Below, piece by piece: positions 3,162 to 32,516 of a stretch of DNA of 41,749 nucleotides. The translations under genes were made by a program, and so were the position numbers. The notes beneath the pieces were generated by a model. It saw only the letters and a list, made by a program, of their open reading frames with translations, was not told the DNA's origin and did not search any database. The stretch comes from Elusimicrobiota bacterium. Lineage in GTDB: Bacteria > Elusimicrobiota > Elusimicrobia > JACQPE01. Position 1 is the first letter of the stretch; every line of letters starts with the position of its first letter. Location of the stretch: positions 1 through 41,749 of the forward strand of contig JACQWW010000079.1 in assembly GCA_016209025.1 (NCBI GenBank), in the 5' to 3' direction.

Positions 3162-3950
3162 ATGAAAAAGAGAGAGGTATTTTTTTGTCTTTTGACGACG
3201 CTGATGACGGCAAAACAGGCAAGAACTGAAACAGCCGGCGCTGTTAAAGCCGGCCGGGCCTGGGCATTCCAGGTGGGGTATTCTTTTGCCGAAGAAAAGC
3301 CTGCTTTTGAACTGGAAGCTCCGGTCAGAGTGACGGCGCCTGGAGGGGCGAGCTATTTAAGCTCAGCCTCCGGCGACATCAATCTGGAGGCCGAAGGCGA
3401 ACATCTGACTTTGACCGTTTTTTTTCCGCGCACGGATTATTTCGGCTGGGACATGCAGGCAGGAACATCAAATTACCGGGTTTGGATACCGTCGGGACCG
3501 GCCGCCAATCAGTTGGCGGCCGGCCGCGGCTACAGCGTCGGCGCCGGGCTTAACATTGAAATCGTGCGCAAAACACCCGTCACCCCGCGGGTATACTCGC
3601 GCCTTGCCTGGAAAACGACAGCGACCAGGCCGGATCGCATTTACTTCGGCGGGGAAAACCGCTGGGAGAGCGTTGAAGACCGGATGGATATTTCGAAAGT
3701 TTCCCTGGGTTTCGGGACACAGTCATCCGTGTTCGGCGGACGCGTTGAGCCGGCCGCTGCTTTCGAGGTGTTTGATAAAAGGATAAAGCTGCGCGACCTT
3801 AAAGAGGGTCATGAAGCGGCGGGCGCGCGCCGGGGCTGGCGGTTTTCGACAGGCGCTGCCTGGCGGCTGTCGCCGGTCGAATCGGTCGGCGCCGAATTGT
3901 CGCTTCGCGATGAACAGGGCTGGCGGTTCGCTTTGGAACAGAGGTTTTAA
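3162..3950 (+). CDS. Hypothetical secreted protein, possible outer-membrane beta-barrel
   Basis: 262-aa ORF with an N-terminal signal-like segment 'MKKREVFFCLLTTLMTAKQA', alternating hydrophobic/polar stretches and a C-terminus '...GWRFALEQRF' ending in Phe. Its TAA stop overlaps the rplJ ATG by 1 nt. I recognise no family. Confidence 0.55.
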   Translation: MKKREVFFCLLTTLMTAKQARTETAGAVKAGRAWAFQVGYSFAEEKPAFELEAPVRVTAPGGASYLSSASGDINLEAEGEHLTLTVFFPRTDYFGWDMQAGTSNYRVWIPSGPAANQLAAGRGYSVGAGLNIEIVRKTPVTPRVYSRLAWKTTATRPDRIYFGGENRWESVEDRMDISKVSLGFGTQSSVFGGRVEPAAAFEVFDKRIKLRDLKEGHEAAGARRGWRFSTGAAWRLSPVESVGAELSLRDEQGWRFALEQRF

Positions 3951-4483
3951 TGAATGAACAAGAAAAAAAGCTGGCTTTGGAAGAGCTGGCCGCGGTTTTG
4001 AGCAAATCGCCGATCAGTCTTTTCGCTTCATTCAAAGGGGTGACAACTCCGGAACTTTTTGAAGCGAAGAAAAAAATCAAGAAAGAAAACGCTAAATTCT
4101 GCGTCATTAAGAAATCGCTTTTGGAAAAAGCCTTCCAGAATATCGGCCTTGAAATCAGCGGTGAACAATTTTGGAAAGGCGAGGTGGCCGCCATGACGTG
4201 CTCAAATGGCGACCCGTCCCGCCTGGCCAAACTGCTGGCTCAGTGGGCCGAGCAAAATAAAAATATTGTCATTAAAGGCGGCGTAATATTATCCGGAAAA
4301 AAATGGCTTGACCGCGCCTCGGTCGAGCGGTTGGCCAAGCTCCCCTGCGCCAAGGAGCTTCAGGCCCAGCTGGTCGGCGGTTTGGCCGCTCCCATGGCGC
4401 ATCTGGCCGGCGTTTTAAATGCCACCCTGGTCCGGTTTCTGCTGGTTTTGAAGGCAGTTGAAGCAAACAAAAAAGAATATTGA
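3950..4483 (+). CDS. rplJ: 50S ribosomal protein L10
   Basis: 177 aa directly upstream of rplL, with L10-like length and a C-terminal helix '...AKELQAQLVGGLAAPMAHLAGVLNATLVRFLLVLKAV'. Confidence 0.85.
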   Translation: MNEQEKKLALEELAAVLSKSPISLFASFKGVTTPELFEAKKKIKKENAKFCVIKKSLLEKAFQNIGLEISGEQFWKGEVAAMTCSNGDPSRLAKLLAQWAEQNKNIVIKGGVILSGKKWLDRASVERLAKLPCAKELQAQLVGGLAAPMAHLAGVLNATLVRFLLVLKAVEANKKEY

Positions 4484-4555
4484 ATATGGAATGTTGAATA
4501 TTGGAAGGAAAAAAGAAAATTTTTCCCAATATTCTACATTCAATATTCTATATTC
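4475..4555 (+). repeat. Family A heptamer hairpin A1 (rplJ | rplL gap)
   Basis: 'gaatatt gaatatg gaatgtt gaatatt gg' - loop - 'cc aatattc tacattc aatattc tatattc'. The rplJ TGA stop (4481-4483) lies inside unit 1/2. Confidence 0.9.
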
Positions 4556-4579
4556 TCGCAATTTAAGGAGGTATCTGAA

Positions 4580-4975
4580 ATGCCCGTAGCGACGAAAGAG
4601 GAAATTACCGAGGCCATCTCAAAGCTGACGGTGCTTGATTTGGCGGACTTAGTCAAAATGCTGGAGGACAAATTCGGGGTCAAGGCTGTGGCGGCCGCGG
4701 CGCCGGCCGGCGCCGGACCTGCCGCCGGAGCGCCGGCTTCAGCCGTTCCGGTTGCCGAAGAAAAAACGGAATTCAGCGTGGTCCTGCAATCGGTCGGCGC
4801 CAATAAAATTCCGGTCATCAAGCTGGTCAGGGAAATAACGGGCCTGGGACTCAAGGAATCCAAAGACTTGGTTGAAGGCGCGCCAAAAACCGTCAAAGAA
4901 GGCCTTCCTAAAGCGCAGGCTGAAGAGTTGAGAAAGAAATTGACCGATGCCGGGGCCTCGGCGGAACTGAAATAA
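4580..4975 (+). CDS. rplL: 50S ribosomal protein L7/L12
   Basis: '...[19 protein letters not shown]', an Ala/Pro hinge, then '[67 protein letters not shown]'. SD 'aaggagg' lies upstream. Confidence 0.97.
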
Positions 4976-13099: not shown

Positions 13100-13121
13100 A
13101 AATTTTACCAGGTAAAATTTT
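13099..13121 (+). repeat. AAAATTTT-stem hairpin F2, overlapping the rpoC stop
   Basis: 'tg aaaattttacc a ggtaaaatttt' (11-bp perfect stem, 1-nt centre). Confidence 0.8.
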
Positions 13122-13188
13122 CGTTAGTTGTTTGTCGTTAGTTGTTTGTCGTTTTGCGATTAACAACCAACGACCGACGACCAACGAA
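13122..13188 (+). repeat. Heptamer hairpin D (rpoC | rpsL gap)
   Basis: 5' arm 'cgttagt tgtttgt cgttagt tgtttgt cgttttg', 3' arm 'aacaac caacgac cgacgac caacgaa'. By eye, 20 of 25 positions are Watson-Crick and 2 more are G.U. Confidence 0.8.
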
Positions 13189-13221
13189 TCACGCGCCGAC
13201 GAGCGCCGCGAGGAGGCGTAG

Positions 13222-13647
13222 ATGCCGACCACCAGCCAACTTTTAAGAATTTTCCGCAGTAAGCGCGCCTACCGTTCCAAGTCGCCGGCTCTGCGCGAAT
13301 GTCCTCAGCGCCGCGGGGTTTGCCTGCGTGTTTACACCACCACGCCGAAAAAACCGAACTCCGCTCTGCGCAAGGTGGCCCGCGTCAAGCTGACCTCCGG
13401 CATAGAGGTGACGGCCTATATCCCGGGCATCGGCCACAATCTTCAGGAACACTCGATCGTCTTGGTGCGCGGCGGCCGGGTAAAAGATCTTCCTGGGGTG
13501 CGCTATCATATCATCCGGGGCGTTTTCGACTGCAGCGGCGTCGATGGCCGCCGGCAGGGCCGCTCCAAATACGGGGCCAAGCAGCCCAAGGAAACGGCAG
13601 CCGGCAAAACGGCCGCGGCGCCGGCCGGGGCAGGAGCTACAAAGTGA
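13222..13647 (+). CDS. rpsL: 30S ribosomal protein S12 (with an Ala-rich C-terminal tail)
   Basis: 'MPTTSQLLR...[70 protein letters not shown]'. Confidence 0.97.
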
Positions 13648-13723
13648 ATATTGAATATGGAATATTGAATATTGGGAAGAATAAAAAATTTCTCCAATAT
13701 TCTACATTCAACATTCTACATTC
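13646..13723 (+). repeat. Family A heptamer hairpin A2 (rpsL | rpsG gap)
   Basis: 'gaatattgaatatggaatattgaatattggg' - loop - 'ctccaatattctacattcaacattctacattc'. It begins on the last 2 nt (13646-13647) of the rpsL TGA (13645-13647). Confidence 0.9.
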
Positions 13724-14220: not shown

Positions 14221-14306
14221 GACGCGGCGACGGGGAGACGCGGTGACGCGGGGAAAGTTTGGTTTTGGATTTTTTAATCTCCGCGTCCCCGCGTCCCCGT
14301 GTCTCC
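14221..14306 (+). repeat. Octamer hairpin C (rpsG | fusA gap)
   Basis: 5' arm 'gacgcggc gacgggga gacgcggt gacgcggg g', loop 'aaagtttggttttggattttttaat', 3' arm 'ctccgcgtcc ccgcgtcc ccgtgtct cc'. The arms are largely complementary. Confidence 0.85.
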
Positions 14307-14321
14307 GAGTCAGGAGCATCG

Positions 14322-17645: not shown

Positions 17646-17729
17646 GGAATATAGAATGTGGAATATAGAATATTGGAGCAAGAAAGACCTCTTTGTTTTC
17701 CTACATTCAACATTCAATATTCAATATTC
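17646..17729 (+). repeat. Family A heptamer hairpin A3 (tuf | rpsJ gap)
   Basis: 'ggaatatagaatgtggaatatagaatattgg' - loop - 'cctacattcaacattcaatattcaatattc'. Confidence 0.9.
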
Positions 17730-23538: not shown

Positions 23539-23622
23539 GGAATATAGAATGTTGAATATTGAATATAGGAACACAGGCGGTCTTTTTTCTTCCCTATATT
23601 CCATATTCCATATTCCATATTC
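23539..23622 (+). repeat. Family A heptamer hairpin A4 (rplN | rplX gap)
   Basis: 'ggaatatagaatgttgaatattgaatatagg' - loop - 'cctatattccatattccatattccatattc'. Confidence 0.9.
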
Positions 23623-24855: not shown

Positions 24856-24971
24856 GAGAATGTTGAATGTTGAATATAGAATATAGAATGAAAAAAACGA
24901 GAGATAAAAGCCATTTTTGCATTTTGTGTTTCCGTTTCCGTCCTACATTCTACATTCCATATTCTACATTC
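24856..24971 (+). repeat. Family A heptamer hairpin A5, long-loop variant (rpsN | rpsH gap)
   Basis: 'gagaatgttgaatgttgaatatagaatatagaatg' - ~50 nt - 'cctacattctacattccatattctacattc'. The 5' flank 'caaagggagaatgttgaatgttgaat' is shared with A6. Confidence 0.88.
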
Positions 24972-25379: not shown

Positions 25380-25489
25380 GAGAATGTTGAATGTTGAATG
25401 TTGAATATAGGATGAAAACAACGAGGGAGGAAAGCCGTTTTTGTATTTTTCATTCCTGTCCTACATTCTACATTCCATATTCTACATTC
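25380..25489 (+). repeat. Family A heptamer hairpin A6, long-loop variant (rpsH | rplF gap)
   Basis: 'gagaatgttgaatgttgaatgttgaatatagg' - ~45 nt - 'cctacattctacattccatattctacattc'. Confidence 0.88.
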
Positions 25490-30774: not shown

Positions 30775-30859
30775 GAGAATGTGGAATGTTGAATATGGAA
30801 TATTGGGGAGGAATGACTTTCTATTTCTTCCAGCATTCAACATTCAATATTCAATATTC
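30775..30859 (+). repeat. Family A heptamer hairpin A7 (rpmJ | rpsM gap)
   Basis: 'gagaatgtggaatgttgaatatggaatattgggg' - loop - 'ccagcattcaacattcaatattcaatattc'. Confidence 0.9.
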
Positions 30860-32403: not shown

Positions 32404-32516
32404 GAGAATGTCGAATGTGGAATATGGAATATGGGGTGAAAAAAAGAAAAAAAAGAAAATGCGAGGGCCGCTTTTATTCTTTTCGTCCAATATTCTACAT
32501 TCCATATTCTATATTC
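32404..32516 (+). repeat. Family A heptamer hairpin A8, long-loop variant (rpsD | rpoA gap)
   Basis: 'gagaatgtcgaatgtggaatatggaatatgggg' - ~45 nt A-rich loop - 'ccaatattctacattccatattctatattc'. Confidence 0.88.

Follow-up and report, generated by a model that had tools for sequence, protein, structure and literature searches.

Intervening sequences (IVS) of 23S rRNA and short intergenic heptamer repeats are the described systems closest to the element examined here. In Coxiella burnetii, the IVS of 23S rRNA helix 45 carries an S23p open reading frame and a terminal stem of about 28 bp that is cut by RNase III (PMC4990558). Heptamer over-representation was noted in 2007, as cited in an account (PMC4692102) of heptamer repeats, among them the convergent GGGAATC pairs of Xanthomonas and the STRR of cyanobacteria. 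TAACTGA in Beggiatoaceae forms intergenic heptamer direct repeats of 2-6 units located just upstream of start codons (PMC4679880). Bacterial heptamer repeats (STRR) have been on record for decades without a mechanism. The DNA analyzed here, a 41,749-nt stretch referred to as the window, is contig C136 of the 2.53-Mb, 276-contig assembly of an Elusimicrobiota bacterium (G000), and harbors hairpins, grouped as family A, in which each arm consists of four tandem GAATRTD heptamers, the arms being inverted and GG/CC closing the loop side. We found that a periodic mismatch at position 7 of the heptamer is a non-random, built-in feature of about 63 such hairpin repeats; this position-7 analysis is the new contribution of the present work.

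The first of these hairpins, A1, and its gene junction comprise the following features:

4475-4502, + strand: 5' arm of A1, four GAATRTN heptamers, with position 7 at 4481 (T), 4488 (G), 4495 (T) and 4502 (T)
4481-4483, + strand: TGA stop codon of the upstream ORF 3950-4483 (rplJ), made at the unit 1/unit 2 junction
4503-4527, + strand: centre of A1, with the stem-extending GG...CC clamp and an inner A6/U6 helix that ends in a small apical loop
4528-4555, + strand: 3' arm of A1, four NAYATTC heptamers; 4528 A pairs with 4502, and 4535 T, 4542 A and 4549 T lie opposite T, G and T
4565-4582, + strand: AAGGAGG ribosome-binding site and ATG of the L7/L12 gene (ORF 4580-4975), starting 10 nt past the A1 hairpin

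The 5' arm (4475-4504) reads GAATATT GAATATG GAATGTT GAATATT GG and the 3' arm (4526-4555) reads CC AATATTC TACATTC AATATTC TATATTC. The initial annotation had counted 27 of 30 positions as paired, with the non-pairs at position 7 of the three outer heptamers, and this reading is upheld from the sequence: the non-pairs are 4481.4549 (T.T), 4488.4542 (G.A) and 4495.4535 (T.T), and the innermost heptamer is fully paired. For either strand, the minimum free energy structure given by RNAfold is a series of 6-bp helices with 1x1 loops between them, with energies of -31.8 and -33.9 kcal/mol for the two strands (z of about -8.3 and -8.7). The first mismatched base, T4481, also lies within the upstream stop codon, which is supplied by units 1 and 2 (GAA TAT TGA).

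Eight family A copies are present in the window, where three-in-tandem matches to GAATRTN number 35, against 0 in 100 shuffles. The copies other than A1 are:

13646-13723, + strand: A2 hairpin, 4+4 units, with 2 nt of unit 1 shared with the upstream TGA stop; the position-7 pattern is that of A1
17647-17729, + strand: A3 hairpin, 4+4 units, of opposite element polarity, with A.A, G.A, A.A and T.T at position 7
23540-23622, + strand: family A copy of opposite polarity
24858-24971, + strand: family A copy with a long centre, a close paralogue of the 25382 copy
25382-25489, + strand: family A copy with a long centre, a close paralogue of the 24858 copy
30777-30859, + strand: family A copy, with a hairpin also at the corresponding site of genome G001
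32406-32516, + strand: family A copy; the counterpart site in G001 carries a family A arm array at its contig end

In A2 and A3 we recovered the position-7 mismatches described earlier, together with transitions (A/G) at position 5; the sense strand of A2 folds as 4-bp blocks with 3x3 loops because of three A.C oppositions at position 5. The centres of A1-A3 span 22-27 nt and hold no PF05635 open reading frame. A1 and A2 are not independent examples, since their position-7 pattern (TGTT/ATAT) is common to both and to at least three other copies in the genome (C131, C134:7574 and C271:8736), and they belong to one sub-family. Sub-families defined by the loop were uninformative, with single linkage lumping 52 copies together, because the centres are of low complexity.

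Using a tolerant search, we determined the pairing at each unit position for 63 family A hairpins in G000, 53 of which have exactly 4+4 units; period 7 accounts for 326 arrays in this genome, compared with 16-156 at other periods. Unit positions 1-4 and 6 are paired in 95-100% of the 63 copies in every unit and the GG/CC clamp in 92-97%, and the columns past the fourth unit fall to a background of 30-49%, so that the stem stops sharply after 28 nt. Position 7 of the outer three units is paired in 22-29% of copies (unpaired in 47, 45 and 49 of 63), that is, below the flanking non-stem columns. In the innermost unit the same position is 75% paired and covaries (24 U-A, 22 A-U), being unpaired in 16 of 63 copies. 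Position 5, always A or G, is 57-86% paired with no covariation, its Watson-Crick pairing being 50% against an expected 52-55%, and C is avoided at position 7. A random spread of mismatches over unit positions is ruled out, given that in the 63 copies non-pairs fall at positions 7 and 5 only. The constraint within the unit is split three ways: five letters are fixed, one position covaries only near the loop and one is non-complementary in the outer units. The helix proposed at the outset, 6-bp segments separated by 1x1 loops with a 7-nt spacing, describes A1 and many other copies well, although position 5 often adds mismatches of its own.

The covariation of the innermost position 7 and the pairing of the GG/CC clamp indicate selection on pairing, and this bears on the possibility that the heptamer is a site for a ribbon-helix-helix-type dimer in double-stranded DNA, the hairpin being irrelevant. 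The omega repressor of plasmid pSM19035 binds 7-bp heptad arrays, and the 7-bp period of family A, the inverted orientation and the retention of the GAATRTD word on its own strand in both arms, whatever the pairing, would all fit operator arrays of this kind. Against them stand the inner covariation and the paired clamp, and also the genomic position of the copies, which avoid divergent (promoter) spacers and sit in operons right after stops: of 49 copies with clean boundaries, 45 have co-directional genes on their two sides, none occupies a divergent spacer, and 36 of those 45 begin -9 to +10 nt from the upstream stop codon. Moreover, no candidate partner protein was identified, and we judge operator arrays to be a very improbable explanation.

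The stronger claim that non-complementarity at position 7 is enforced stands only in part. Watson-Crick pairing at the outer position 7 is 20%, compared with 37% when arms are paired at random, and it remains below the values obtained when units are shuffled within oriented arms (30%, p=0.0004) or when the partner arm is taken from another copy at the same unit (26%, p=0.012), all of these p-values overstating independence because the family A copies are related by descent. With an independent pair counter, 498 of 500 column shuffles paired at least as well as the real stems. The arms are anti-correlated at position 7, because re-dealt partner bases pair more than is observed. The non-complementarity therefore exceeds the expectation from base composition, but it is largely the inherited consensus of a polar dispersed repeat, the mismatch excess over the family's own position-specific consensus being small (20% pairing versus 26%). 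As for the length of the duplexes, the longest helix free of interruptions has a mean of 11.3 bp, compared with 14.4 +/- 0.6 bp in shuffles, and uninterrupted runs of at least 14 bp occur in 11% of copies against 39%; the longest unbroken duplex is at most 13 bp in about 90% of copies, and only 2 of 63 stems contain 20 or more uninterrupted base pairs. G000 encodes RNase III. The resistance to this enzyme proposed in the initial annotation would be possible for such stems, yet the rRNA intervening sequences, the nearest relatives described, are themselves its substrates (PMC4990558).

The polarity of the element was assessed with a two-orientation mixture model, which reached a log-likelihood of -825 compared with -837 +/- 3.4 for a symmetric null, 1 of 100 null runs attaining the observed value. 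In the oriented consensus, position 7 from the outer to the inner units reads T, G/T/A, T in one arm and A, T, A in the other arm when this is read as GAATRTN, and the innermost unit has A or T in both arms; viewed on the same strand, the outer units carry T/G in one arm and T/A in the other. The consensus mismatches are T.T, G.A and T.T, or A.A, C.U and A.A when the other strand is read. Polarity is unlinked to transcription (28/46) or to GC skew (29/50), and the sense and antisense RNAs fold with equal stability (-27.5 versus -27.0 kcal/mol). Since both orientations occur relative to transcription, some copies present U.U/G.A and others A.A/C.U, and since polarity is transcription-independent and the folds are equally stable, the pattern travels with the element rather than being shaped at each site by the transcript. 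Strand-specific selection on the RNA was rejected in view of the equal stability of sense and antisense folds and of a polarity tied neither to transcription nor to GC skew. With the arms displaced by one unit, position 7 pairs in 52-56% and a 14-nt alternation shows up in one arm; a slipped register was nevertheless rejected, as it sacrifices a whole unit together with the GG/CC clamp, and the minimum-energy folds keep the original register.

These data also allow us to weigh neutral degeneracy, according to which positions 5 and 7 would be unconstrained letters, the arms would drift independently and the periodicity would be automatic. Position 5 behaves in this manner, showing no covariation; among closely similar copies, the variable positions diverge more quickly than the centres do, and allowing for the family consensus removes most of the mismatch excess. 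Drift of this kind does not, however, account for an outer position 7 that pairs below the flanking columns and below every null tried, for the arm-specific T/G versus T/A composition, which persists in two genera, or for the avoidance of C at position 7 and the restriction of position 5 to purines. Overall, we regard it as improbable.

Among 40 related genomes, family A occurs in one, G001, which belongs to another genus of the same family. Its 13 copies repeat the pattern, with position 7 paired in 15-38% of outer units, and its hairpins occupy several gene junctions shared with G000. The centres in G001 resemble those of other G001 copies and not those of their same-site counterparts in G000, which indicates turnover or conversion. 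The rplJ|rplL spacers of three sister genera (G002-G004) are short and lack such a hairpin, and a conserved operon regulator was rejected on account of this absence. Nor is family A a regulator tuned to individual operons. The copy numbers given here are lower bounds, because repeats break short-read assemblies. Family A arms are often found exactly at contig ends of G001 (C22:1-20, C106:4-30, C118:6-25, C28:12097-12126 and the end of C166). Separately, runs of at least four tandem GAATRTN units appear in many phyla among the matches listed (loci L050-L129, public genomes), mostly as homogeneous direct arrays, the taxa including Verrucomicrobiota, Planctomycetota, Bacteroidota, Cyanobacteria, Patescibacteria and Vibrio.

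The origin of these hairpins is illuminated by IVS-type cassettes of the same genome. G000 contains six complete PF05635 (23S_rRNA_IVP) genes, and all six lie between inverted tandem-repeat arms. One of them, at C182:1076-1384 (121.9 bits), is enclosed by family A arms, and it is the only family A-armed cassette found; the arms of the other five are built from the units GAAGTCT, GGTCGTT, GGGGKTT, AAGGGAA and the 8-mer GACGCGGG, all of which also occur in gene-less arrays or hairpins elsewhere in G000. Seven further IVP genes, in genomes G002-G005, have tandem 7- to 9-nt repeats on both sides, mostly as visibly inverted copies of the same unit. Family A hairpins are most likely gene-less, stripped-down miniatures of the IVS-type cassette; in the opposite direction, an IVP gene could have entered an existing hairpin. 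The C182 IVP protein has no match in G001, a genome that is 90% complete; this may reflect an assembly gap.

Several details of the cassettes and of related insertions were also observed. The C182 cassette (1000-1600) has a complete family A hairpin nested within it, immediately behind the gene, and two tandem copies of the 3' arm, and its IVP open reading frame ends in ...RREY* from the repeat-unit sequence GAA TAT TGA, as the rplJ frame ends in ...KKEY* in A1. The frames that hold the IVP domain at C4:19693-19998 and C99:7992-8303 are open for 646 and 464 codons, respectively, and continue across the 3' repeat arm into the coding sequence beyond it; if the frames are genuine, translation would include the arm. 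Hairpins of GAAGTCT units are present in the window at 128-203, 890-986, 1586-1661 and 2899-2975, placed within the 23S rRNA gene (Rfam match 152-2879) or at its end; they resemble IVS-type insertions, with stems that are only about 74-76% complementary. A hairpin of GACGCGG(G)-type units is located at window positions 14229-14311, and this type of unit also brackets the IVP gene at G000 C102:2299-2607.

Taken together, we consider that family A is probably a dispersed, IVS-cassette-derived hairpin repeat whose inherited, polarity-bearing consensus keeps the stem segmented. The position-7 mismatch would be inherited with the element by copying, conversion or unit turnover and not tuned at each locus, and position 7 of the innermost unit covaries so that pairing is kept there. 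The transcribed hairpin is predicted to be stable (about -27 kcal/mol) and yet segmented, and a segmented stem may therefore be tolerated inside operons and may be handled differently from a perfect 28-bp IVS stem by double-strand-specific enzymes or by a binding protein.

A different reading, put forward in the initial annotation, takes the 1x1 loops every 7 nt as a recognition surface maintained by selection and read by a periodic protein. A candidate reader would be the Avd-like four-helix-bundle protein of the C182 cassette, with one subunit or contact per heptamer. It would explain why position-7 partners are anti-correlated while the inner unit covaries, why a second genus (G001) displays the same pattern, why each IVP gene has its own arm repeat, and why at least four other heptamer families of G000 and a cassette of G003 have one non-complementary position per unit. 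The families concerned are GTCGTTW, GAGGGTW, GGGATTA and ACGAATG, and the G003 cassette (GGGGTGA/TGACCCC) has G.G every 7 nt. The mismatch is only partly general across heptamer families, however: several are perfectly paired, among them the GGACGAA family and, at position 7, the (GAATGTT)n/(AACATTC)n hairpins of Thermoanaerobaculia, and the mismatches of GAAGTCT are spread over phases. Position 5 adds irregular mismatches, and no single RNA surface is conserved, because mismatch identity flips with element orientation (U.U/G.A versus A.A/C.U). Periodicity alone is no evidence of design, since any unit-level difference between the arms becomes periodic in a stem of tandem units; what is informative is that position 7 is anti-correlated and that the inner unit differs from the outer ones. 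We think that a recognition surface of this kind is unlikely. An additional case in the window is the GTCGTTW/AACGACC hairpin at 13119-13189, between rpoC and rpsL, which has one non-Watson-Crick position per 7 nt, A.C or T.C on this strand and G.U or G.A on the other, one arm alternating A/T with a 14-nt period.

Family A is also an abundant, imperfect, intergenic palindrome in a genome that encodes ten Y1_Tnp + DnaA_C-like proteins, as would be expected of a REP/REPIN mobilized by a RAYT-type tyrosine transposase, in which the stem mismatches would be recognition features. The repeat found at the flanks of the Y1_Tnp genes is, however, not GAATRTN but another one, GGGGTCAGGTCTT... (456 half-sites), there are no period-7 arrays within 700 nt of them, and family A lacks the GTAG/CGTC head that belongs to the definition of REP (PMC3733652), none being present in the flanks of the 49 cleanly bounded copies. 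We find this mobilization scarcely credible for family A, and a RAYT/REP link was rejected on the basis of the GGGGTCAGGTC-type repeat that flanks the ten Y1_Tnp genes. The RAYT-like genes are ten open reading frames of about 230-365 aa with Y1_Tnp; a Pfam scan of two of them added a weak DnaA_C-like helix-turn-helix. The palindromic repeat at their flanks, caatGGGGTCAGGTCTTCATTTGTCAYTTG...CAAATGAAGACCTGACCCCattg, is very abundant and separate from family A (456 half-sites; e.g., C50:3097-4149 and C4:16137). Together with the Y1_Tnp genes it resembles a classic REPIN/RAYT system that differs from the heptamer hairpins.

Two further candidates were rejected. An internal promoter, read from TTGAAT and TAYATT words alone, is at odds with the two orientations of the element. 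An intrinsic terminator, which calls for a G+C-rich stem and a U-run after it, was discarded given the A+T-rich stems and 3' flanks (tcgcaattta, acccctttct and tgagtaattc) that have no T-run. At the Rfam gathering score, the window matches only LSU rRNA and 5S rRNA, with no match for family A.

The same family A arms that form these operon hairpins also enclose an IVS-type protein gene, and one may speculate, with little confidence, that the mismatches are a selected design of heptamer-armed IVS-type cassettes, setting how the arm helix is read by an Avd-like protein or by RNase III. If so, binding or cutting of the gene-less operon copies would be phased and controlled, and the copies would not be destroyed, and the long-unexplained bacterial heptamer repeats would gain a mechanism. 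If the mismatch is only inherited, it would amount to an ordinary, if well-documented, trait of a selfish repeat.

Compared with the known systems, family A resembles the 23S rRNA IVS (PMC4990558) in its inverted arms, which measure 4x7 nt plus the GG/CC clamp here against a stem of about 28 bp there, and in the small four-helix-bundle (PF05635) gene that lies between the arms of the C182 copy. Unlike that IVS, A1-A3 are gene-less and are located in mRNA spacers and not in rRNA, and the family A stem is built of tandem heptamers with a mismatch every 7 nt, whereas a single mismatch and a single bulge interrupt the Coxiella stem (PMC4990558). The features of heptamer repeats are found across the 63 copies, which are intergenic, over-represented and arranged as convergent stem-loop pairs. 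As in the STRR and Xanthomonas repeats, the tandem 7-nt units are abundant and intergenic, form inverted stem-loop pairs and vary rapidly between relatives; family A differs from them in phylum and in unit, and in its fixed 4+4 units with a GG/CC clamp, and the passages on those repeats in PMC4692102 describe neither a periodic mismatch nor arm polarity. The TAACTGA repeat of Beggiatoaceae places a stop codon in each of the three frames and can itself overlap the one upstream (PMC4679880), and family A is likewise found at stops; only one inverted case of TAACTGA has been reported (PMC4679880), whereas family A is always an inverted pair starting at the stop codon. Finally, family A shares with the REP/BIME/REPIN elements of Proteobacteria the character of high-copy imperfect palindromes that occur mostly in operons just after stops and in both orientations, but its arms are microsatellite-like and are not tied to the RAYT-like genes of the genome.
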